A stretch of DNA of 64,000 nucleotides. Source: Gemmatimonadota bacterium. Lineage in GTDB: Bacteria; Gemmatimonadota; Gemmatimonadetes; Longimicrobiales; Gaopeijiaceae. The position numbers were made by a program, and so were the translations under genes. Below the pieces are notes generated by a model. That model did no database searches, was not told the DNA's origin, and worked only from the letters and a program-made list of their open reading frames with translations. How positions within the stretch are numbered: position 1 is the stretch's first letter; the number at the start of each line of letters is the position of its first letter. The stretch spans positions 80,829 to 144,828 of the forward strand of contig JAPPNN010000004.1 of assembly GCA_028873815.1 (NCBI GenBank), given 5' to 3'. Shown piece by piece: positions 2,134 through 12,432 of the stretch.

Positions 2134-3552
2134 ATGGGGAAGCCCGCCGTGAAGGAGAGCCCCTCGGCGCCCGGCCGCCGCACCGTCATCGCTTCTCTAC
2201 ACGACGAACTGCGCGACCGCTTCGGCGACCGCTACTCCACCGCCGCCGCCGTCCGCGACCATCATGGCAAGGACGACTCGCACCACCCCACCATTCCGCC
2301 CGACGGCGTGGTCTTCGCGGAGTCGACCGAGGAGGTGGCGTTCACGGTGCGGGCGTGTGCGCGGCATGGTACGCCGGTGATTCCCTTCGGGGCCGGCACC
2401 TCGATCGAGGGGCACGTGCAGGCGGTGCGCGGCGGGATCTCGATCGACATGAGCGGCATGAACCGGGTGCTGGCGGTCCGGCCGGACGACCTGGACGCGA
2501 CGGTCGAGGCCGGAGTGACGCGGCTGCAGCTCGACCGGGAACTGCGCGGCACGGGCATCTTCTTCCCGGTCGATCCGGGTGCCGACGCGACGCTGGGCGG
2601 CATGGCGGCCACGGGCGCGTCGGGGACGACCACCGTGCGGTACGGCACGATGCGCGACAACGTGCTCTCGCTCACCGCCGTGCTGGCGAGCGGCGAGGTG
2701 GTGAGGACGGGGGGGCGCGCGCGGAAGTCGTCGGCCGGGTACGATCTCACCAACCTGCTGGTCGGGTCGGAAGGGACGCTGGCGGTGATCACCGAGCTTA
2801 CGTTGCGACTGCATCCGGTCCCCGAGGCGATGGCCGCCGCCGTGTGTTCCTTCCCGGGACTGGATGGAGCCGTACGTACGGTTGTCGAAGCCATACATAT
2901 GGGCATCCCCCTCGCACGCGCGGAATTGCTCGATGCGACGGCGATGCACGCGGTCAACCTCTACTCGGGATTCGATTATCCGGAGGTGCCCACCGTCTTC
3001 TTCGAGTTCCACGGATCGGAAGCGGATGTCGAGGCCCAGGGCGCCATGATGCAGGAGATCAGCCGCGAACTGGGCGGGACCGCCTTCGAATACGCCCGCC
3101 AGCAGAACGAGCGGGCCCGGCTGTGGAAGGCTCGCCACGACGCCTACCCCGCGCTGCTGGGGCTCAGGCCCGGCTGTCACGGCCTGACGACCGATGTCTG
3201 CGTGCCCGTCTCACGTCTGGCCCGTTGCATTGCCGAGAGCGAGGAGGACCTGAAGACGGCTTCGATGCCGTGGGGCGTGGTGGGTCACGTTGGCGACGGC
3301 AACTTCCACGCGGTCTTCATCATCGACCCGGATTCGGCGGCGGAGCTGGCCGAGGCCGAAGCGATCAACGAGCGCATCGTGCGGCGGGCGATCGCCATGG
3401 AGGGCACCTGCACCGGAGAACACGGAATCGGGCTGGGGAAGATCGGCTACCTGGAGTCCGAATTCGGGGCGTCGGGGGTGGCGGCGATGCGGGCGGTGAA
3501 GGCGGCGCTCGACCCGCAGGGGATCATGAATCCGGGGAAGGTCGTGACCTGA
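2134..3552 (+). CDS. FAD-linked oxidase (D-lactate dehydrogenase / GlcD family)
   Basis: 472 aa. PCMH-type FAD-binding N-terminus (VIPFGAGTSIEGH) and a C-terminal FAD-oxidase domain ending GEHGIGLGK...LDPQGIMNPGK. Confidence 0.85.
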   Translation: MGKPAVKESPSAPGRRTVIASLHDELRDRFGDRYSTAAAVRDHHGKDDSHHPTIPPDGVVFAESTEEVAFTVRACARHGTPVIPFGAGTSIEGHVQAVRGGISIDMSGMNRVLAVRPDDLDATVEAGVTRLQLDRELRGTGIFFPVDPGADATLGGMAATGASGTTTVRYGTMRDNVLSLTAVLASGEVVRTGGRARKSSAGYDLTNLLVGSEGTLAVITELTLRLHPVPEAMAAAVCSFPGLDGAVRTVVEAIHMGIPLARAELLDATAMHAVNLYSGFDYPEVPTVFFEFHGSEADVEAQGAMMQEISRELGGTAFEYARQQNERARLWKARHDAYPALLGLRPGCHGLTTDVCVPVSRLARCIAESEEDLKTASMPWGVVGHVGDGNFHAVFIIDPDSAAELAEAEAINERIVRRAIAMEGTCTGEHGIGLGKIGYLESEFGASGVAAMRAVKAALDPQGIMNPGKVVT

Positions 3553-4915
3553 TCCGGGGCAACAGCGCGCAGACGGAGATCAGGATCAGAGCGGCCGCGG
3601 CCGGCAATCCGGCTTGCGGCGCGTCGCCGGCGGGAACAGCCGGCTCGAAGCTGGGCACCCGATCCCAGTCCACCTGAGCCATCGGGGCGGCCGAGAACAG
3701 GAACGGCTGGAAATGGGCCTTGAGACGTTCGTGGTAGCTCCGGACCGCTTCCTGGTAGGCGAGTTGCGTGCCCAGGTCGGCGGAGGAAAGCCGGTCGAGC
3801 GCGATCTGGGTCGCAAGCGGCGGCACCAGAAGGGACCACCGGCGGGCCCATTCATCCCGCCGTGTCAGGATGTCGCGGTAGGCGTGCGAGGCGTCCCGGG
3901 CTGCCTGGTCGCCCCGGTGATTCATCGCATAGTACCAGGCCCACGTAAACTCGTCTTCCGGGACGATCCAGTCGCTCCATTTCGGATAGTCCTCGAAGAA
4001 GGATTCCATCGTTCCGGCCCGTGGAAGATCCCATGCTTCGTGATACCCCTGGCGCTGGCGCACGGTCAGTTCCAGGGCTTCGGGCACGGGGTGGAGGAGC
4101 GCATTCGTCAGGCTCAGGACCGCCGGAGCCAGGAAGGTGAGCGCTACCCAGACACCGACGAGGATCATGGCATTGGCGGTTGAGGAGCGGTGCCCGCCGG
4201 CGACGCCCAGGCAGAGCGCAAACCAGAAAAGGGTGTGCAGGGCAATCAGCGCGATTGCCCAGCCCGCACGGCCGTCGGCATCGATTCCCGTCGAGAATGC
4301 CCCAATCAGGGCCGGCGACGTGACCAGGCCCGTTGCAAGGACCACACGCGCGGCGATCTTTGCGGCAATCAGCCGCCGGGGTCGGGCGAAGAGCCGGGCC
4401 ATCCGCCAGGTCCCGCGCTCACGCTCGCCCGAAACGATGTCGTAGGTGACGGCAATGACGAAGAGCGGAAGCAGGGCGATGAGGACAAAGGCCAGGTCGA
4501 GGTGCCCCGCGGCCGCGAGGCGAGGATTCAATGTCTCGTGTTCATAGAGTTGGCCCTCGAGCGCCAGCAGCCGTATCCGCAGGCTGGCCGTCTCTACCGC
4601 CATTCTGCCGCTCGCCAGTGCCGACAGTCGGGACGGTGGCTGGGGTGCCGGGAATGCCAGGTAATACAGCGGCTCGCCCGCTTCCGTAGTCGGTGGATAG
4701 ATGGACGACAGATACGCAAGCTGATCCCGGTAGGCGGTTTCGGCCGCTGACGTGGCGGCCTCGGCGGCCTGGATTCTCCGGTTTCCTTGCCAGCTCGCAT
4801 ACACGCCCAGTCCCAGCAGGAGAAGCACCGCCGCCGCGACGCCGCCGGAGCGGATTACCCGGGCGAATTCAAGCCGGATCAGGCGTATCCACGCCACCGT
4901 GCTTTCGGACCGCAC
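3524..4915 (-). CDS. ABC-2 / DUF3526-type transporter permease (paralogue D)
   Basis: Multi-TM protein with the ABC-2 hallmark VSGERERGTW. Paralogous to the three upstream genes. Start is uncertain (GTG at 4915 or 4897); the ATG at 5098 would overlap the preceding gene by 170 nt. Confidence 0.7.
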   Translation of the reverse strand: MRSESTVAWIRLIRLEFARVIRSGGVAAAVLLLLGLGVYASWQGNRRIQAAEAATSAAETAYRDQLAYLSSIYPPTTEAGEPLYYLAFPAPQPPSRLSALASGRMAVETASLRIRLLALEGQLYEHETLNPRLAAAGHLDLAFVLIALLPLFVIAVTYDIVSGERERGTWRMARLFARPRRLIAAKIAARVVLATGLVTSPALIGAFSTGIDADGRAGWAIALIALHTLFWFALCLGVAGGHRSSTANAMILVGVWVALTFLAPAVLSLTNALLHPVPEALELTVRQRQGYHEAWDLPRAGTMESFFEDYPKWSDWIVPEDEFTWAWYYAMNHRGDQAARDASHAYRDILTRRDEWARRWSLLVPPLATQIALDRLSSADLGTQLAYQEAVRSYHERLKAHFQPFLFSAAPMAQVDWDRVPSFEPAVPAGDAPQAGLPAAAALILISVCALLPRIRSRPSPDS

Positions 4916-4926
4916 CCTGCTGGCCC

Positions 4927-6375
4927 TCACAATCCGGAGCCGTCCACACCCAAGCGCGGAAGCCGCTTTCGTCCCAGCCCGAGGCCCACAAGGGGAACGG
5001 CGATCCACAGCCCCAGTGCGGCCAGCGACTGGGGACGATCGGTCAGAGCCCGGCCGAGCGTCGGCGGATTTGGCCGGAATACGGGGAACCGTGTCCATTC
5101 CTGCCGTGCAATGCGCTGGGCGCGGTCGTTCTCGTACTTGATCTCGTGGACGTGGAGGTCGTTGAGGCGCTGGATGATGTCATAGCGGTGGGCCTCGGCC
5201 TGCGCGCGGAAGGCCTCTACAGCTTCCGGCCCGGTCCCCGCCGCAGCCATCGACAGGTCCCGGGCCGCCAGGTAGGGAGAGAGCAGCCCGAGCCACGCGA
5301 TTATCCCGTCCTGTCGGCGATGAGCGGCGAGCAGTGCCTGCTGGTGCTCCTCCTGGATCCGGCTGGTGATCTCCTCTCCCTCGCGGCTGACGACCCCTCC
5401 CCAGTTGATCGGCAACTCCTCCACGGATGCCACCTCGTAGCGCGCCAGGTACTCGTCGCGCAGCGCGCTGAAGAAGGGATCGTCCGGGTTGTGGCTGTCC
5501 CCCACTCCCCTCTGCGCTTCCTCGACCTGGGCGGTGAACTGCGCACGCGACGGGATGGGATGAAGTGTGGCCGCGAGGGAGGCACCGAGGCGCGGAGCGG
5601 CAACGCACAGCGCGACCCATATTGCAACGAGCTGGGCCAGAGCGGCTCGGGAAGAGCTTCTGCGTGACGAAACCCAGACGGTCAGCAGCACCCATCCTGC
5701 GAGATACGCCGCATAGCCGGCCGCGAGCGCCAGCAACCGTGTGGCCGAGGTTGGGGCCTCACCTCCGACAGCGGCGAATGCGGCCGTGACCAAGCCGATC
5801 GGAAGGGCTGCCGCCAAGGCAACTGCCCCGACGCTCAGCACCTTCCCTCCCATGATCTGCCCCGGCGTCGCCCCCTGGGCCAGGAGCAGCCGAAGCGTCC
5901 CCCGTTCCCTCTCACCGCCCACCGATGCGAAACCCGCGGCCACCACGAACAACGGCAAGAGCATCCCCAGCACGGTGGCGGGCGTGAGACGCCCGAAACG
6001 CAGCATGCCGGTCGAATGGCGCGCGTCGCTGAAGCTGGCGGCGTTCTGTCGGTGCCCCTCCAGGAAGAGCGACGTCCCCGCGTAGGCACCGACTCCCGGA
6101 TCGAAGAACGCCAGTGGTGCCTCCTCCCGGAAGACGAGGAAGCCGTAGTGGATCACGCGGTGCGGATGACGTTCCGGCTGCTCAGCCCACTGGCGTTCGA
6201 CCAGCGTCTGGTAGCGTGCACGCTGTTCCGCCTCGCTCGCGGCGTGATGCCGGGCTCCGAGGACGGAGACGACCCCCATGGAGACGACGAGCGCCAGCAG
6301 GAACACGACGTAGCGATCCTCGCGCATAGCACCGATCTGCCGCCGTGCAACGAGCAGCGTGTTGCGGAGACCCAC
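4927..6375 (-). CDS. ABC-2 / DUF3526-type transporter permease (paralogue C)
   Basis: GGERERGTLRLLLAQG motif. The N-terminus VGLRNTLLVARRQIGAM... aligns with the N-termini of paralogues A and B. GTG start lies 1 nt after the upstream stop. Confidence 0.7.
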   Translation of the reverse strand: MGLRNTLLVARRQIGAMREDRYVVFLLALVVSMGVVSVLGARHHAASEAEQRARYQTLVERQWAEQPERHPHRVIHYGFLVFREEAPLAFFDPGVGAYAGTSLFLEGHRQNAASFSDARHSTGMLRFGRLTPATVLGMLLPLFVVAAGFASVGGERERGTLRLLLAQGATPGQIMGGKVLSVGAVALAAALPIGLVTAAFAAVGGEAPTSATRLLALAAGYAAYLAGWVLLTVWVSSRRSSSRAALAQLVAIWVALCVAAPRLGASLAATLHPIPSRAQFTAQVEEAQRGVGDSHNPDDPFFSALRDEYLARYEVASVEELPINWGGVVSREGEEITSRIQEEHQQALLAAHRRQDGIIAWLGLLSPYLAARDLSMAAAGTGPEAVEAFRAQAEAHRYDIIQRLNDLHVHEIKYENDRAQRIARQEWTRFPVFRPNPPTLGRALTDRPQSLAALGLWIAVPLVGLGLGRKRLPRLGVDGSGL

Positions 6376-6376
6376 C

Positions 6377-7807
6377 CTAGCCCGCTCCCCGCACCCGCCT
6401 GAGCCCCACTCCGGCACCGATGCCCACCAGCAGCACAAGCCCGCCCAGAACCGTCAGCGGAACTGCCGCCCGGCGTGCGGCCTCGCCGGGGCGTTCGTCC
6501 GCAAGGCGAAACCTCGGCACGTTGGGAAGCACGCTGGCGCTCATCTGCTCGTCCGCGAGGACTGCGGGCACGAAGAACTCCCGCCATTCCTCCGCAAATG
6601 CCCGTACCTGTGACTGGAAGTGGACGAAGCGCGCGTCCCCCGTCCCGGCAGCGTCAATGAGCACGTCCTGGGCCAGGAGCGCTGGCGACAGGAAGCGGTA
6701 GCGGCGCACCAGGATGATCTGATGGGCGCGCTGGGCATCGTGTTCCGACGTCACTTGCTCCAAACGGCGGTTCACGGCGTCCGTGGCGGCCCAGGCGAGG
6801 GCCCCCAGACCCGGCTCGTCCGCCACCACCCCCTCGGCCATCTCGGGATGGTCCTCCAGGTATCGGGCGAGCAGTTCGCTACGGCGGTTCACGGCGTCGT
6901 TCGAAGCGTCGCGCTGGGCAGTGATCATCTCGATGCGAGACGGCAGCGGATGGAGCACGCCCGCCGCGATGTTGATCGCCGCCGGGAGCACTACCACGAG
7001 CACCAGCCACGCACCCACCAGCACCGTGGCGTTCCAGGCCGAGGACCTCCGCAGGGTGTTGACCCATGCCGCGAGCGCGAACCAGAAGAGCGAGTAGGTG
7101 ACGACGGTGGCACACCACAGAAGAACCCGCCCGGGTGAATCGAGGCCTCCCGTGACCAGAATGCCCAGCAACGACATCGCAAGCACCATCCCCACAACCA
7201 GAAGCGCCCGGAATGCTAGCTTCGCCGTCACGACGCTTCGGGCCGACACGGGCTGCGAAAGCGTCAGCGCCAGCGTTCCCTGCTCGCGTTCCTCCGAGAG
7301 GACGTTGAAGCTCAGGGCCAGAACGAGCAGGGGCAGCAGGTACACCACCACGAAGGCCAGGTCAAAGCGCCCGACCATCAGGTTGAGGGGGTTTTCGACC
7401 TCGCCGTTCTGTTGAAACGACGACTCGTTGGTGTAGATGTTGACGTCGTAGTAGTACGGCAGCAGGTCGCTTTGCCCGACCGCCAGGGCCGTCAGGGAAC
7501 CCGGCTCCAGCACCGCGGTGTGGCTGCCGCCGGGCCCGCCCAGGACCAGCGGTGAGCGCGGGTCAGCAAAGGGCGAGGACGGTTGTCCGCCGTTTGCGAT
7601 GGCGTCGAGTTCCTGCTGTAAGGCGCTGGTGCGCTCGACGTTGCCGCTCTCCACGGCCTCCACGGTGCGCTCCTGAAACCGTAGCCAGACCACGCCGTTT
7701 GCCAGCGCGTAGACGAGGAGGACGGCGAAGAGCCCAAGCACGATCCGAAGCGCCTGATCAGCCATGAGCAGACGCCACTCGTTCCGCAGGACGGTCCGTA
7801 CGGTCAT
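6377..7807 (-). CDS. ABC-2 / DUF3526-type transporter permease (paralogue B)
   Basis: 476 aa. LSEEREQGTLALTLSQP motif and multiple TM segments. ATG lies 1 nt after the upstream stop. Confidence 0.75.
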   Translation of the reverse strand: MTVRTVLRNEWRLLMADQALRIVLGLFAVLLVYALANGVVWLRFQERTVEAVESGNVERTSALQQELDAIANGGQPSSPFADPRSPLVLGGPGGSHTAVLEPGSLTALAVGQSDLLPYYYDVNIYTNESSFQQNGEVENPLNLMVGRFDLAFVVVYLLPLLVLALSFNVLSEEREQGTLALTLSQPVSARSVVTAKLAFRALLVVGMVLAMSLLGILVTGGLDSPGRVLLWCATVVTYSLFWFALAAWVNTLRRSSAWNATVLVGAWLVLVVVLPAAINIAAGVLHPLPSRIEMITAQRDASNDAVNRRSELLARYLEDHPEMAEGVVADEPGLGALAWAATDAVNRRLEQVTSEHDAQRAHQIILVRRYRFLSPALLAQDVLIDAAGTGDARFVHFQSQVRAFAEEWREFFVPAVLADEQMSASVLPNVPRFRLADERPGEAARRAAVPLTVLGGLVLLVGIGAGVGLRRVRGAG

Positions 7808-7808
7808 G

Positions 7809-9221
7809 CTACGTCACCTCCGCGCGCCGTACACGCGCCACTGCGGCCAGGATTGCTCCCGCCAGCCATGCTCCAAGAACCAGGAGTGACAGGACCCGGT
7901 TGCCCAGCACCCAGCCCAGCGGCGGGGCGGCGTACTGCAGCGGAGGCACCGCTTCCCAGAGTTCGGCCCCGGCGGTGTACGTGAAGTCGCCGGTCAGGGA
8001 GTTCTCGGTCATGTCACCGTTCATCTGCCGCATCAAATCGCGGCGGTACGTCTCGGCAGCGTTGGCGAAGTGCCGGTGCTGCTCGACATCCGTACCGGCC
8101 AGTCCCATCGAGAGCGTGCGCACCGCGAGCAGCGGTGCCGCGACCGCCAACGTCTCGTGCACGACGCCCTGGCGCTCGAACGTGTCCCACAACGCGCCGT
8201 AGTTGCGGTCGAAGATCCGATTGCCGAACTCCTCGCTCTCCTGCAGGTAGACGCCCACCGCGTTAATGGGCAGGTCCTCGACCCGTTCCACTCCGTATTC
8301 GGCAAGCAGATGCTCGGTCGAAGCAGCCCGATCCGGACGAGAGATGTCCCCTGTGCCAGTAGCCATCTCGCTTTCCACGGTACGGGCGAACTCGAAGGCG
8401 GAAGGTGTCGGGTGGAGCCATTTCGACAGGTCCACCGCCACCCGGGGCGCCACGAGCCCGTTCACCACCCACACGGCCAGCAGAACGACCAGTGCGGTGC
8501 GCGCCGAGCGGGCCCACGCGGATACGGCCAGTGACAGCGCCAGGAAAGTGGCAAAGTACGCCAGATAGACGCCGGCGAGGGCGGTGCCACGAGCCAGTGG
8601 GGACGCGGCCGGACCAGGACTCGCGACAACCAGCGCCGCCGCTCCCACCAGCGCGGCCGGCACCAGCAGCAACGCCAGCGCGCTCGAGACGCCGAGTGCC
8701 TTGCCCCCTGCGAGTTCGCGCCGACCGATCCCGGTAGCCAGCAGTTGCCGCAGCGTGCCGCGTTCCCGCTCGCCGGCGAGGGTGCCGAAGGTTAGCAGGA
8801 TGATGAGCAGGGGCACGAGGTGCTGGAGCACCTGTGCCGCCGTCAGCGCCCCAATGCGCTGGGCTGCCGTTGCATCCTGGGCCGGACGCAACATGAAGTC
8901 GTTCTGCCGGTGGGCCTCCAACCACACCGAAGTGCCCGTGTACGGGTCCACGCCCTCGTCGACAAAGGACAGCGCCAGACGCGGCTTGAACGCATAAATG
9001 CCGTAGTGCGCCGCCGAGTGGGGGTTCTTCTCACCCTGCGTCTCCCAGTGCTCGCGGGCGGTGGCCTGCGCGGCCGCGTGCTCCTGCTGCGTGTTGCGTG
9101 CCTGAACCCAACCGTGGCCCAGGGAGATCAGCAACAGCGATCCGACGAGGATCGAGCACCAGCGGAACCGGCCGTCCCGCAGCACGTCGGTAAACTCCTT
9201 GTGGACTATATGCCTGATCAT
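7809..9221 (-). CDS. ABC-2 / DUF3526-type transporter permease (paralogue A)
   Basis: 470 aa. LAGERERGTLRQLLATG motif. 9-nt gap after the ATPase gene. Confidence 0.75.
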   Translation of the reverse strand: MIRHIVHKEFTDVLRDGRFRWCSILVGSLLLISLGHGWVQARNTQQEHAAAQATAREHWETQGEKNPHSAAHYGIYAFKPRLALSFVDEGVDPYTGTSVWLEAHRQNDFMLRPAQDATAAQRIGALTAAQVLQHLVPLLIILLTFGTLAGERERGTLRQLLATGIGRRELAGGKALGVSSALALLLVPAALVGAAALVVASPGPAASPLARGTALAGVYLAYFATFLALSLAVSAWARSARTALVVLLAVWVVNGLVAPRVAVDLSKWLHPTPSAFEFARTVESEMATGTGDISRPDRAASTEHLLAEYGVERVEDLPINAVGVYLQESEEFGNRIFDRNYGALWDTFERQGVVHETLAVAAPLLAVRTLSMGLAGTDVEQHRHFANAAETYRRDLMRQMNGDMTENSLTGDFTYTAGAELWEAVPPLQYAAPPLGWVLGNRVLSLLVLGAWLAGAILAAVARVRRAEVT

Positions 9222-9230
9222 CGATTCTCC

Positions 9231-9971
9231 CTAGTCGTGCATGTGTTGCAGATAGATGCGCTCCAGGTCGGCATGGCCGATCTCGTCGGTGCTCAACTCC
9301 GTGACCAGGCGTCCGTATCGCATGATGCCCACACGGGTGCCGGTATCCTTTGCGCGAAACAGATCGTGTGTCGCCATGAGGACCGCGACGCCGCGGTTTC
9401 GGAGCCGCTCGACCAATGCCGAGAACTCGTTCGACGCCTTGGGATCAAGACCGGATGTCGGTTCGTCGAGCAACAGTGCGTCGGCCTCCTTGGCGATTGC
9501 AATCGCGATACCGACCTTCTGGCGCATGCCCTTGGAGTATTCGGACACGCGTCGGTCGACCGCGTCGCGCTCCAGCCCGGCTTCGACCAGGATTTCGGTG
9601 AGTCGTTCCCGGCCGAGCGACCCCTTGCCACCCAATGCGGCGAAGTACTCCAGGTTTTCCAGTCCGCTGAGGTTGCGGTACAGCATCACCTGTTCGGGGA
9701 TGTAGGCGAGCCGCTGCTTCGTCTCGCGGTCGTGGGTGGCTACGTCCAGACCGGAAACGAGGGCCTGGCCACCCGAGGGCGCCACGAATCCGAGGAAGAG
9801 GTTGATGGTGGTCGTCTTACCCGCGCCGTTGGGGCCGAGGAGGCAATAGACCTCTCCCGGCGCTATGGTCAGGTCGAGGGAGTCAAGGGCCCTCGTGTCA
9901 CCGTAGTCCTTGCTGAGTCTGCGGGCCTCTAGAAGGGGCGTGTGCCCGGGCCGCGATTCGGCGGTCTGCAT
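9231..9971 (-). CDS. ABC transporter ATP-binding protein
   Basis: Walker A GPNGAGKTT, signature-like YSKGMRQK and Walker B LLLDEPTSGLD. Start taken at MQTAESRP (9971). Confidence 0.9.
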   Translation of the reverse strand: MQTAESRPGHTPLLEARRLSKDYGDTRALDSLDLTIAPGEVYCLLGPNGAGKTTTINLFLGFVAPSGGQALVSGLDVATHDRETKQRLAYIPEQVMLYRNLSGLENLEYFAALGGKGSLGRERLTEILVEAGLERDAVDRRVSEYSKGMRQKVGIAIAIAKEADALLLDEPTSGLDPKASNEFSALVERLRNRGVAVLMATHDLFRAKDTGTRVGIMRYGRLVTELSTDEIGHADLERIYLQHMHD

Positions 9972-10065
9972 GTTGTTTCCATCTCTCGCGTTGGGTGCGC
10001 CGTCAACAGCGCAGCCGTTGGACAGGTCCACTGCCGACGCCCTGGTCGGCAGAAGGGGCTCATCG

Positions 10066-10341
10066 CTACAGAGAGATGGGAAGCGGCGGCGCGCGACTGC
10101 GATGAGGGGAGAGATGGACGACGCTGGAGATCAGCTGGTGCCCGAAAAGCGCGGGGGCCCGAAGCAGACCCAGCTCGACGATGGCCTGCGTGTCCGCCGT
10201 GGCTGTCTGCACCCCCTGGTGACCCAGCTCGCAGACGGAGCACACGGCCGACAGGTCAGTCCCCGTGTGCGCATGCGAGCCCTCGACGGCGTTGAAGAAG
10301 AGCAGCGAGAGGACGACGACAATTCCCACCAACGAACGCAT
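10066..10341 (-). CDS. small exported Cys/His-containing protein (hypothetical)
   Basis: MRSLVGIVVVLSLLFFNAVEG signal peptide followed by SHAHTG...CSVCELGH. High GC3 in this frame. First gene upstream of the ABC operon on the same strand. Confidence 0.45.
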   Translation of the reverse strand: MRSLVGIVVVLSLLFFNAVEGSHAHTGTDLSAVCSVCELGHQGVQTATADTQAIVELGLLRAPALFGHQLISSVVHLSPHRSRAPPLPISL

Positions 10342-10412
10342 GCCTCCCTGCGATCCCCCTGGACCGATCAGGTGGGCCATCTTCGTTCCGCCTATCCCCG
10401 CAGACTCACGTG

Positions 10413-10430
10413 CCGGCCTCGCGAGGCCGG
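10413..10430. promoter_or_regulatory. perfect 18-bp palindrome CCGGCCTCGCGAGGCCGG in a divergent intergenic region
   Basis: Lies between divergently transcribed genes (small exported ORF / ABC operon versus S9 peptidase / SusCD). This position fits an operator, not a terminator. Confidence 0.3.
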
Positions 10431-10485
10431 TGCCGGTACCAACACTATGATAAGATCAGTCGACCGATCAAGCCAAAGGCGACCC

Positions 10486-12432
10486 ATGACCAGACGAGCG
10501 AGCATCCTTCCGGCCTGCCTCATCCTGTTCGGCTGTGCGCCGGGCCAGCCTGAGCGACTTGCTGACTCAAGCCGGTCCCTCGACCTCACCCTCGAGAACA
10601 TCTTCGGTCCCCGCGGCCGCGCCGGCACCAGCGAAATCAGCCCCGACGGGCGGTACGTTGCGGTGTCGGCCACGGGCCCCGAGGGGTCGGGGATCTACCT
10701 GGTGCCGACGAGCGCCGCGGAGCCGGGGACGGCTGCCGCGGAGCCGGGGACAGACGCTACGTCAGCTGCACCCGCCCCGACCACCGGCACCTTCTGGGCC
10801 GAGGGCGGCTCCCCATCCTGGTTCCCCGGCAGCGACCGGATCGTCTTCCGGCGCGGCGCCGACCTCTGGACCATTGCCGTGGGCAATGACGAACCCGTCC
10901 GGATCACCAGCGACGACGACAACGAGCGTGCGCCCCGCGTATCCCCCGACGGAAGCCTGGTGGCCTTCTACTCGGGGCGCTCCGGCTACCAGGACATCTG
11001 GGTGGTCTCCGCCGACGGGTCCGCCGAGCCGCGCCAGGTCACCTTCGAGGCCTTTGCCCCGGACGACTTCCGCTGGTCGCCCGCCTGGGCCCCGGACAGC
11101 CGCCGGATCGCCTACGTGTCGAACGCCGCCGACTACTGGCACGACGACATCTGGGTGGTGGACATCGAGACCATGGACACGCGGCAGGCCTCCCGCACGC
11201 TGATGGCCTCGACCGAGCCCGTGTGGTCACCGGACGGCACGAAGATCGCACTGCTGGGCACGCACAAGGACGGCTACTGGTACGAGGACCTCGCCGACAT
11301 CTTCGTCCTCGACCCGGCGGCCGGCACCGAGCGCACGGTGGACATGCAGATCAATGCCACCGACTGGCTGCACCGCATGCGCATCTTCTGGTCCGGCGAC
11401 GGCGAGCGCATCGTCTTCCCGTACCATGAGCGCGGCGACTTCGACCTGTGGTCGGTGCCGGTCCAGGGCGGGGTCGCCACGCGCGTGACCAACATGGGCG
11501 GGTCGCTCGGCTCCATATCCTCCTCGGCGGGCGCGGAGACCTTCGCCTTTACGCGCGCAACCCCGACCCGCGGGTCAGACGTCGACCTCATCCCCTCCGC
11601 CGGAGGCACACTCCGCCGCCTCACCAACTTCGCCGCCACCTGGAACACCGTGGTCGACCCGGTCGAGATCTCGTTCCGCAGCTACGACGGCCTCTACATC
11701 CAGGGCTTCCTGTACATGCCCCCCGGCCACCAGCCCGGCGACCGCCATCCCGCTCTGGTCCAGGTGCACGGCGGCGGCACCAACTCGTACCTGCACGGCG
11801 AAAATCTCTTCGAGCAATACCTGGCGTCGAAGGGATACGTGGTGCTGGCTGTGAACTACCGCGGTGGCTCCGGCTTCGGCCGCGAATTCCAGGACCTGGG
11901 CATCAACGACTGGGCCAACGGCCAGGCCCGGGATGCGGCGGCCGCCGGCGAGTTCCTCCGCACGCAGGACTACACGGACGGCAAGGTCGGCATCTACGGC
12001 TACAGCTATGGCGGTATCACCAGCATGGCGGCGATCGCGCGGGTGCCCGGCGTCTTCGACGCGGCGGTGCCAATGGCCGGCATCTACGACTTCGGCGACG
12101 CCTACACCAACGCCGACCGCATCGGCCGGATCTTCATCAGGACCGGGCACTCGGGGTCGCCGGAGGAGCAGCCCGACATCTACGCGGTGAGCAACACGCT
12201 GGCGCGCATCGGGAACATCGACACGCCGCTGCTCATCATGCACGGGGAACTGGACGTGCGCGCCCCGTACCGCCAGTTCGAGATCGCGGTGGCCGAGCTG
12301 GAGCGCCACGGCAAGGTCTTCGAGAGCCGGAGCTACCCGGGGGAGACGCACGGACTGCGCCCGCCGGCCCGGATCGATATGTACACGCGCGCCGAGGCGT
12401 TCTTCGACCGGATGCTGAGGGGAGAGGGGTAG
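10486..12432 (+). CDS. S9 family peptidase with N-terminal PD40/TolB-like beta-propeller (lipoprotein)
   Basis: MTRRASILPACLILFGC lipobox. Repeated SPDG/WSPDG propeller motifs. Nucleophile elbow GYSYGG and a C-terminal alpha/beta-hydrolase region. The upstream part of the 840-aa ORF overlaps the ABC ATPase gene and is rejected. Confidence 0.85.
   Translation: MTRRASILPACLILFGCAPGQPERLADSSRSLDLTLENIFGPRGRAGTSEISPDGRYVAVSATGPEGSGIYLVPTSAAEPGTAAAEPGTDATSAAPAPTTGTFWAEGGSPSWFPGSDRIVFRRGADLWTIAVGNDEPVRITSDDDNERAPRVSPDGSLVAFYSGRSGYQDIWVVSADGSAEPRQVTFEAFAPDDFRWSPAWAPDSRRIAYVSNAADYWHDDIWVVDIETMDTRQASRTLMASTEPVWSPDGTKIALLGTHKDGYWYEDLADIFVLDPAAGTERTVDMQINATDWLHRMRIFWSGDGERIVFPYHERGDFDLWSVPVQGGVATRVTNMGGSLGSISSSAGAETFAFTRATPTRGSDVDLIPSAGGTLRRLTNFAATWNTVVDPVEISFRSYDGLYIQGFLYMPPGHQPGDRHPALVQVHGGGTNSYLHGENLFEQYLASKGYVVLAVNYRGGSGFGREFQDLGINDWANGQARDAAAAGEFLRTQDYTDGKVGIYGYSYGGITSMAAIARVPGVFDAAVPMAGIYDFGDAYTNADRIGRIFIRTGHSGSPEEQPDIYAVSNTLARIGNIDTPLLIMHGELDVRAPYRQFEIAVAELERHGKVFESRSYPGETHGLRPPARIDMYTRAEAFFDRMLRGEG

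Follow-up and report, generated by a model that had tools for sequence, protein, structure and literature searches.

A candidate CruR/CutF-type leader peptide at the head of an ABC operon with one ATPase and two DUF3526 permease pairs in a sponge-associated Gemmatimonadota bacterium

Six genes on the minus strand

The window analysed here is a stretch of 64,000 nucleotides (nt), positions 80,829 to 144,828 of contig JAPPNN010000004.1 in assembly GCA_028873815.1, and all coordinates below are positions within it unless another locus or genome is named. The host belongs to the sponge-associated 'Ca. Palauibacter' (Longimicrobiales, Gemmatimonadota), many of whose close relatives are metagenome bins with sponge- or coral-like names. 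Six intact co-directional genes on the minus strand, at 3524-10380, encode a small exported Cys/His protein, one ATP-binding cassette (ABC) ATPase and four permeases, named P1 to P4. Our analysis points to the small protein being a metal-sensing arrest-peptide leader that gates translation of the ABC genes behind it, and to the four permeases being two pairs of separate ancestry. The genes, in the order of transcription, are as follows.

10066-10380, minus strand: cruR/cutF-like leader gene, 104 amino acids (aa), from open reading frame (ORF) and translation; its Pfam match, PF11162, is below cut-off
9231-9971, minus strand: ABC-2 type ATPase, 246 aa, PF00005 at 1.3e-27
7809-9221, minus strand: P1, A-type DUF3526 permease of the core pair, 470 aa, assigned by Pfam and tree
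6377-7807, minus strand: P2, B-type DUF3526 permease of the core pair, 476 aa, assigned by Pfam, pairwise BLAST and tree
4927-6375, minus strand: P3, A-type DUF3526 permease of the accessory pair, ~482 aa, GTG start, assigned by Pfam, BLAST and tree
3524-4915, minus strand: P4, B-type DUF3526 permease of the accessory pair, ~463 aa, GTG start, assigned by Pfam, BLAST and tree

A preliminary description of this DNA had already proposed six co-directional genes, four of them for permeases, and the ORF listing and translation confirm this and show all six to be intact; the motifs that it quoted (SHAH, CSVC, GERERGT and EEREQGT) are all present. Its assignment of the permeases to ABC-2/DUF3526 families is also borne out, as each of the four exceeds the gathering scores of both PF12679 ABC2_membrane_2 (46.9-92.9 bits, cut-off 27.2) and PF12040 DUF3526 (92.5-110.8 bits, cut-off 25). 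No other DUF3526 gene occurs in the assembly, which is 4.29 Mb long and 86% complete. An NCBIfam search returned no specific family for the leader or the permeases.

Two details of the earlier layout need correction. The small protein had been given 92 aa, which is the count from its second Met; counted from the conserved MAHLIG start it has 104 aa, and its export signal and Cys/His motifs stand as described. The spacers had been put at 1-35 nt, but the leader-ATPase spacer is 94 nt, followed by 9 nt (ATPase-P1), 1 nt (P1-P2), 1 nt (P2-P3) and 11 or 29 nt (P3-P4). When the sequences that follow the leader are aligned for 34-38 non-identical relatives, the ATG at 9971 emerges as the ATPase start codon, giving the N-terminus MQTAESR. 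The GTG at 10031, on which the earlier 35-nt spacer depended, was rejected as a start codon, as 9972-10065 aligns as non-coding structured RNA and an invariant Shine-Dalgarno (SD)-ATG arrangement lies further down. The 94-nt spacer is judged non-coding because its indels are not multiples of three.

The leader and the leader-ATPase junction

By inspection, the leader carries an export signal or N-in-C-out anchor made up of a basic n-region (R15) and a 16-residue hydrophobic stretch, LVGIVVVLSLLFFNAV, followed by VEG/S. After the n-region and hydrophobic segment (15-33) come SHAH (35-38), C47-S-V-C50 (codons 10242-10231), 45 residues, R96-A-P-P99 (codons 10095-10084), LPISL and the stop, with RAPP ending 5 residues before it. 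In an alignment of 49 homologues, C47, C50 and RAPP are invariant, H36 and H38 are present in at least 90% of rows, and apart from the hydrophobic segment nothing else is conserved; CxxC is nearly invariant in 95 wider relatives as well. CxxC and RAPP are 45 residues apart in the window leader and all Palauibacter-type copies; most other lineages have 42-46 residues, and one outlier (L110) has 51. In 20 of 20 loci of the genus, and in nearly all of 80 loci of other genomes, a leader with this CxxC/RAPP anatomy heads the operon. At all loci the leader comes first, and the ABC system downstream would be the part that handles metal.

CruR (Bp2923) and CutF, the two members of the DUF2946 family that have been studied, are exported nascent peptides that sense copper via a Cys motif and control downstream genes by ribosome arrest at a C-terminal Pro-rich motif (PMC9426467; bioRxiv 10.1101/2025.02.05.636593). 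The hallmarks of the CruR family are CxxC and RAPP 45 residues apart, a spacing that is conserved within 1-2 residues and is required for regulation (PMC9426467). Arrest at RAPP, with Pro/Pro in the P and A sites, has been described for ApdA/ApdP (PMC10951233) and, by toeprint, for CruR (PMC12992588). From its sequence, the small protein of the window is best read as a regulatory arrest-peptide leader of this CruR/CutF type, not as cargo or chaperone. The preliminary description had seen in its Cys/His motifs a hint of metal-related cargo; the link to metal is retained here and the cargo role is not. In two published context surveys of DUF2946/CutF-like leaders an ABC transporter is not among the regulated genes, and a term search of the RAPP-peptide survey gave no mention of an ABC transporter as a regulated gene.

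PF11162 (DUF2946) is the only Pfam match of the window leader (19.3 bits, E 0.002) and the sole or top match of each of ten relatives (11.7-21.7 bits), with all 11 of the 11 proteins below threshold. A profile built from the leader family recovered 683 clusters of small proteins of 80-145 aa. When 95 proteins were scanned, namely 94 recruited by this profile and the window protein, 35 matched PF11162 at E <=0.01, the best at 2.4e-6. Because PF11162 is the top or only match in the relatives and is hit by 35 of these 95 proteins, the leader family appears to be a divergent wing of DUF2946.

The leader gene has a ratio of nonsynonymous to synonymous substitution rates (dN/dS) of 0.41-0.68, as against 0.03-0.20 for the ATPase gene, and the leader is 36-72% identical among congeners whose ATPase is 76-98% identical. 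Such fast evolution with few conserved residues fits a leader peptide better than a folded chaperone. The small protein could instead be a stable periplasmic metallochaperone or substrate-binding partner, a role in keeping with its export signal and His/Cys motifs and with the fact that no separate substrate-binding protein is encoded. We consider this very improbable, given the dN/dS values and rapid change outside the motifs, the restriction of conservation to H36, H38, C47, C50 and RAPP, the standing of RAPP as an established arrest module, and the locking of the leader's 3′ codons in a helix with the SD of the next gene. The elements of that helix and of the spacer that it encloses are listed here.

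10071-10079, minus strand: anti-SD segment CCAUCUCUC, the P-I-S codons of the leader right after RAPP-L; pairs with 9979-9987
10031-10052, minus strand: spacer hairpin 1, CUGCCGAC ... GUCGGCAG, consensus fold, compensatory changes in 3 of 8 pairs
9996-10013, minus strand: spacer hairpin 2, UGCGCUG ... CGGCGCA, consensus fold, 3 of 7 pairs changing on both sides
9979-9987, minus strand: SD-like block GAGAGAUGG, separated by 7 nt from the ATPase start codon; pairs with 10071-10079

The RNAalifold consensus recovers both spacer hairpins, and the window sequence folded alone adds a 9-bp helix, CCAUCUCUC:GAGAGAUGG, in both the minimum free energy and the centroid fold. Among 34 relatives, 7 of the 9 bases of the SD-like block never vary, and the remaining two are retained in at least 90%. 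On the alignment of these 34 sequences the full structure has 94.6% of cells paired, compared with 29-53% when the partners are slid by 1-3 columns, and seven of its pairs change on both sides. For the anti-SD:SD helix itself the paired fraction is 96.7%, with changes from A-U to G-U and a single swap from C-G to G-C (L060). Little variation can be expected of this helix, as one arm is coding sequence and the other the SD. The same nested architecture, with the leader 3′ end paired to GAGAGAUGG and enclosing two hairpins, is found in a different lineage (L116; z = -3.5 against shuffles). The SD-masking claim covers the Palauibacter-type leader-ATPase junction and L116 only; the stretch separating the second leader from the receptor in a congener (L051) showed no SD-masking helix (z = +1.3).

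With the P site on 10089-10087, the anti-SD segment begins 10 nt downstream of the first base of the P-site codon, within the footprint of a stalled ribosome. Stalling would thus be expected to expose the SD, and a ribosome that runs through would allow the helix to form again. CutF offers the precedent: there, the stalled ribosome opens a stem-loop that covers the ribosome-binding site of cutO (bioRxiv 10.1101/2025.02.05.636593).

Three further observations concern leaders of this kind. L116 (7516-10858) carries an AhpC/redoxin gene, a cruR-like leader and a P3-like/P4-like pair without an ATPase gene, which looks to have been deleted, since the anti-SD:SD helix, the two hairpins and an out-of-frame ATG remain. 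A second cruR-like leader lies outside the window (locus L124; genome G000, contig C15, 9351-9524, minus strand), with SHNH...CLLC, 45 residues and PRAPPDHFI-stop; it heads an 838-aa DUF5916/CBM9-type protein, orthologues of which come shortly after the two-permease loci L027, L035 and L042. In Vicinamibacterales, a further cruR-like subtype (CHEEHAADQDCAVCQL, 44 residues, ARAPPA-stop) occurs a few kb upstream of the ABC operon, at L072:5839-6105, L074:2477-2743, L083:5695-5961, L092:8212-8478 and L111:5764-6030.

We propose that the leader, the ATPase and the four permeases would form one transcription unit, with two elements upstream of the leader.

10442-10476, minus strand: promoter-like site, -35 TTGATC (10471-10466) with -10 TAGTGT (10447-10442), or the overlapping TTGGCT-18-TATCAT
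10413-10430, minus strand: perfect 18-bp palindrome CCGGCCTCGCGAGGCCGG, in the predicted 5′ untranslated region (UTR), between the promoter-like hexamers and the leader start codon

The promoter-like site, ~65 nt upstream of the leader, is the sole sigma-70-like match in 3300-10700, and across 37 aligned upstream regions of relatives both hexamers keep their positions. Within the operon neither internal promoter-like sites nor minus-strand terminator-like sites were found, and an Rfam scan of 3300-10700 gave nothing credible. The palindrome is conserved in relatives, with paired changes that preserve its symmetry (GGCC to GGTC with GACC in L027, L035 and L042), and could be a 5′-UTR RNA hairpin or an operator. 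At least 12 related loci (L022, L023, L026, L029, L030, L032, L034, L036, L040, L053, L054, L066 and L104) have conserved a different near-palindrome, ATGATTGCAATGCAATCAC, ~100 nt before the promoter-like site; it is possibly an operator. The window, in which an S9 peptidase gene is the divergent neighbour of the operon, lacks this element. On its other side the operon is flanked by a convergent gene for a GlcD-like FAD-linked oxidase (2134-3552, plus strand), which overlaps the 3′ end of P4 by 29 nt, and no terminator-like site was found between the two.

Two permease pairs and their history

The four permeases had been taken for four diverged copies. Pairwise BLAST and a tree resolve them instead into two pairs: P1 resembles P3 (37% identity, E 2e-67) and P2 resembles P4 (31% identity, E 1e-44), whereas the cross pairs are weak (E 1e-7 to 1e-16). 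The paralogue phylogeny that the preliminary description had called for, built from 60 permeases, has its deepest split between an A type, found in first position, and a B type, found in second position. Within their types, P3 and P4 fall beside the Sphingomonas and Corallococcus pairs (support 96 and 100) instead of beside P1 and P2. In sequence terms, the array is two anciently separate A/B pairs from two deep lineages. A recent in-situ tandem duplication of P1-P2 was considered and is rejected by the tree and by the module variants described below.

All four permeases keep a cytoplasmic coupling motif of the ERExGT type after the second transmembrane helix (GERERGT, EEREQGT, GERERGT and GERERGT in P1 to P4). 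In the A type, E151, R152, E153, G155 and T156 are invariant, as are H68, H72, D88, E102 and H104 in periplasmic loop 1; no conserved His was found in the alignment of B-type subunits. Judged by their positions in the sequence, the two His, Glu and His of P1 (H68/H72/E102/H104) may lie close together as a periplasmic cluster. All four permeases are under purifying selection, with dN/dS of 0.09-0.21 (P1), 0.125-0.29 (P2), 0.16-0.23 (P3) and 0.16-0.24 (P4).

The synteny survey suggested earlier covered 24 relatives in the genus and 251 genomes of the phylum Gemmatimonadota, and both the four-permease array and the small Cys/His ORF recur in related genomes. Within the genus, four tandem genes are found in 11 relatives (one of them also with a separate pair), two in 9, none in 4 and a remnant in 1. 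The two-gene loci are always P1/P2 orthologues, and P1/P2 always accompany a leader and an ATPase. Across the phylum, DUF3526 occurs in 47 of 251 genomes, with the four-gene state in at least 3 genera of two families. The preliminary description had called four permeases behind one ATPase unusual. The canonical unit, one ATPase with one A and one B permease, does differ from the window's one ATPase and two A/B pairs, and six of six distant P3 relatives consist of one ATPase and two DUF3526 genes, a unit that the two-permease congeners have as well; the array is nevertheless not peculiar to this genome. Next to these distant units a ~720-aa TonB-dependent receptor is adjacent in 4 of 6, and PepSY_TM in one.

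Locus variants within the genus differ in the order and completeness of two modules, as follows.

G110 (L129): leader2 - TonB receptor - P3 - P4, then leader - ATPase - P1 - P2
Ca. P. irciniicola (L051/L130): the same two modules in reverse order
G100 (L131) and G024 (L024): leader - ATPase - P1 - P2 - receptor - P3 - P4, with leader2 lost
Window and most others: receptor also lost, P3 starting 1 nt after P2

This series suggests that the four-permease row arose when a TonB-receptor module was joined to the core module, followed by loss of leader2 and the receptor. No variant has an ATPase of its own in module 2 (leader2-TonB receptor-P3-P4), and P3/P4 must therefore use the module-1 ATPase or none.

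Given this history, P3/P4 might be non-functional leftovers of a degraded TonB-receptor module, with leader-ATPase-P1-P2 alone at work. Leader2 and the receptor are indeed deleted here with no orthologous receptor elsewhere in the assembly, P1/P2 alone suffice in 9 of the 24 congeners, the dN/dS of P3/P4 is slightly above that of P1/P2, and relatives show occasional stop codons (as in P4 of L049). We nonetheless regard this as quite improbable: both ORFs are intact, dN/dS of 0.16-0.24 against the receptor-less L023, L031, L022 and L025 indicates purifying selection after receptor loss, many species of at least 3 genera retain the receptor-less four-gene array, and the 1-nt P2-P3 junction keeps P3 translationally coupled. 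Decaying copies had been named at the outset as evidence that would count against a four-permease system. Pseudogene decay of P3/P4 is rejected on the intact frames and the dN/dS values, and stops were met only occasionally in relatives, with an in-frame TAG in the P1 orthologue of L016 (G001) and a stop in the P4 orthologue of L049. A 119-aa DUF3526 remnant with two stops was also noted (G008:C1:2210002-2210280), in a genome otherwise without the system.

Beyond the genus, loci L057-L111 from Acidobacteriota (Vicinamibacterales), Latescibacterota and unclassified metagenome-assembled genomes (MAGs) carry ATPase-P1-P2 with 70-86% protein identity across three phyla. From their bin names, these MAGs appear to be sponge- or coral-associated. 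Their leaders are of a different subtype, PHFH...CxxC, 42 residues and SRAPPA-stop. Because the Palauibacter copies are nested among L057-L111 in the tree, cross-phylum transfer of the core operon is suggested. Genomes of one Gemmatimonadota family (f10) have 7-10 weak DUF3526 matches each, five of them within 11 kb on one contig (G051:C142:5712-16624); longer tandem arrays of divergent DUF3526-like permeases therefore exist.

Proposed function and relation to known systems

The ATPase has, by inspection, a Walker A motif (GPNGAGKT), a signature motif (YSKGMRQK), a Walker B motif (LLLDEPTSGLD) and an H-loop, and its nearest solved nucleotide-binding domains are those of the ABCA family, Rv1218c and NosF (1e-42). 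For P1, the only solved relative detectable by sequence is NosY (E 0.024). An AlphaFold2 model of P1 built with 74 sequences (predicted local distance difference test, pLDDT, 89.6; predicted template-modelling score, pTM, 0.88) has as its top 11 Protein Data Bank (PDB) matches only NosY chains of NosDFY(L), with E down to 7e-6 and a template-modelling (TM) score of ~0.7 over NosY, followed by Rv1217c and ABCG25. The model suggests a layout of an interface helix, transmembrane helix 1 (TM1), a ~65-residue periplasmic loop, TM2, coupling helices (ERERGT), TM3-5, a ~155-residue helical DUF3526 insert and TM6. By the usual topology of the type V fold, the DUF3526 insert should be periplasmic.

Taken together, the explanation that we favour, and think probable, is a metal-responsive operon in which a CruR-type arrest peptide unmasks the SD of a NosFY-like complex with two A/B heterodimers and a TonB-linked history. 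The exported nascent leader would carry a His/Cys metal site (SHxH, CxxC) 45 residues ahead of the RAPP arrest motif. A ribosome stalled at RAPP would cover the anti-SD segment and melt the 9-bp helix, allowing translation of the ATPase and the tightly spaced permeases, and a ribosome that ran to the stop codon would let the helix re-form and the operon fall silent. Metal binding to the nascent chain would set the balance between stalling and run-through. The ATPase dimer and an A-type/B-type DUF3526 heterodimer would make up a NosFY-like ABC complex of the type V fold, each permease subunit contributing a large periplasmic domain from loop 1 and the helical DUF3526 insert, with the invariant His/His/Glu/His in the A subunit. 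P1/P2 and P3/P4 would then be alternative heterodimers on the same ATPase. The role of the complex would most likely be an inner-membrane or periplasmic step of TonB-dependent metal acquisition, expressed when metal is scarce. By analogy, the metal is most likely copper, taken as the default because of the CxxC/RAPP precedent; the SHxH motif, ZnuGHI and the His-rich variants that have been discussed for CutF-like proteins make zinc or another metal a possible alternative.

An opposite direction of transport would be metal export or detoxification in the manner of CutF, in which excess periplasmic metal (copper or other) would cause stalling, switch the complex on and lead to removal of the metal or of a metal chelate. 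ABC-2/type V proteins are mostly exporters, and the nearest solved relatives include the Rv1217c/1218c efflux system and ABCG proteins besides NosFY. The SD-masking geometry is that of CutF, where copper turns expression on, and many CutF-like leaders head efflux operons. However, RAPP, CxxC and the 45-residue spacing are hallmarks of CruR, whereas CutF has CxxxC and PPP; DUF3526 pairs repeatedly adjoin TonB-dependent receptors, also within the genus; and the comparable Caulobacter system is induced by zinc starvation (PMC4176598). On this evidence we hold export to be unlikely. Another possibility is that nothing is translocated and that, as in NosDFY, ATP hydrolysis moves the periplasmic domains, so that metal taken over from a chaperone or an outer-membrane receptor is passed to an acceptor in the periplasm or inner membrane. 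The NosY matches by sequence and structure, the presence of NosF among the nearest nucleotide-binding domains, the large periplasmic domains and the invariant His cluster of the A subunit would all suit such a hand-over. It is rather improbable, as neither the operon nor related loci contain a partner gene of the NosD or NosL kind and the likeness of P1 to NosY is limited to a generic six-helix core (15% identity, TM score 0.41 over the query).

Several points weigh against the acquisition model that we prefer. ABC-2 and type V folds are typically exporters or mechanotransducers, not importers. The window leader scores below the Pfam gathering threshold of PF11162 (23.7). The anti-SD:SD helix is almost invariant, and its support consists of conservation, one compensatory swap and one independent recurrence, not rich covariation; the one acidobacterial leader that was folded (L067, SRAPPA-stop, with a longer spacer) has no comparable helix (z = +0.8). 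The window genome lacks the TonB receptor partner of P3/P4, and its closest candidates elsewhere in that genome are not orthologues: they align only over the N-terminal part, at 31-34% identity. CruR and CutF show opposite responses to copper, so the sequence gives neither the sign of regulation nor the direction of transport. In addition, CruR works via Rho-dependent termination, not SD masking, and the proposed mechanism thus mixes two precedents. Lastly, a Pfam control search finds DUF3526 in Caulobacter, and ZnuH/I are candidates for that match.

DUF3526 ABC systems are widespread, occurring also in Alphaproteobacteria, Myxococcota and Acidobacteriota, and a literature search on DUF3526 found no papers in the library covered. 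The only DUF3526-type system with any experimental handle is Caulobacter ZnuGHI, with the family membership just qualified. A CruR-type leader before the ATPase gives the family a testable label, metal homeostasis, and the combination of RAPP arrest with a self-encoded anti-SD segment is a compact regulatory device for testing. The series of locus variants within one genus explains the origin of the 'four permeases, one ATPase' arrangement and predicts that one ATPase serves two different membrane heterodimers. Because a similar core operon is found in sponge and coral symbionts of three phyla, metal handling may be a shared, transferable trait among them. We tentatively raise a wider idea, which we consider possible but doubtful: DUF3526 A/B heterodimers could be a distinct, binding-protein-independent class of ABC systems coupled to TonB receptors, using an 'exporter' (NosY-like) fold to capture metal or metallophore on the periplasmic His/His/Glu/His and then import it or hand it over. 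In Palauibacter, two heterodimers of different specificities would time-share one ATPase, and translation of the operon would be controlled by an arrest peptide that senses metal and whose final codons cover the ribosome-binding site of the gene that follows.

Among known systems, the leader is closest in design to CruR of Bordetella pertussis (Bp2923, the leader of cruR-bfrG-bp2921; Roy et al. 2022, PMC9426467). Both are first genes with an export signal, CxxC and RAPP at exactly 45 residues, and the window leader, like CruR, would lie upstream of metal-acquisition-type genes; in congeners the second leader copy directly heads a TonB-dependent receptor, as cruR does. The window leader differs in its length (104 aa versus 145 aa for CruR), in the number of residues after RAPP (5 versus 3) and in its extra conserved SHxH. 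Its spacer is 94 nt with an SD-sequestering helix, whereas that of CruR is 162 nt with a Rho-dependent terminator, and the gene downstream is that of an ABC ATPase. CutF of Rhodobacter capsulatus (cutFOG; Ozturk et al., bioRxiv 10.1101/2022.11.11.516240, 10.1101/2025.02.05.636593) is likewise an exported metal-sensing nascent peptide, and its stalling near the C-terminus melts an mRNA structure that shields a ribosome-binding site, as we propose here. Unlike the window leader, CutF has CxxxC, a PPP stall site and EF-P dependence, and it controls a multicopper oxidase for detoxification; the masking partner in the window is the leader's own last codons.

On the transport side, NosDFY(L) (PDB 7o0y, 7znq, 7qba), which delivers copper to nitrous-oxide reductase, offers the nearest solved permease core, a NosF close to our ATPase, shared ABC-2/type V folds and, if copper is the metal here, a related function. 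NosY, however, is a homodimer of 270-aa subunits without DUF3526 and works with NosD and NosL, whereas the window system has the ~155-aa DUF3526 insert and A/B pairs, and no NosD, NosL or NosZ gene occurs in the operon or related loci. The layout of the ZnuK receptor and ZnuGHI of Caulobacter crescentus (CC1517-CC1520), with one TonB-dependent receptor, one ABC-2 ATPase, two ABC-2 permeases and no binding protein, matches that of the distant P3/P4 relatives and of the complete module 2 of congeners. ZnuK-ZnuGHI is Zur-repressed and induced by zinc depletion (Mazzon et al. 2014, PMC4176598). It differs from the window operon in this transcriptional Zur/zinc control, in having no leader peptide and in having two permeases only, and ZnuGHI is known from its regulation alone.

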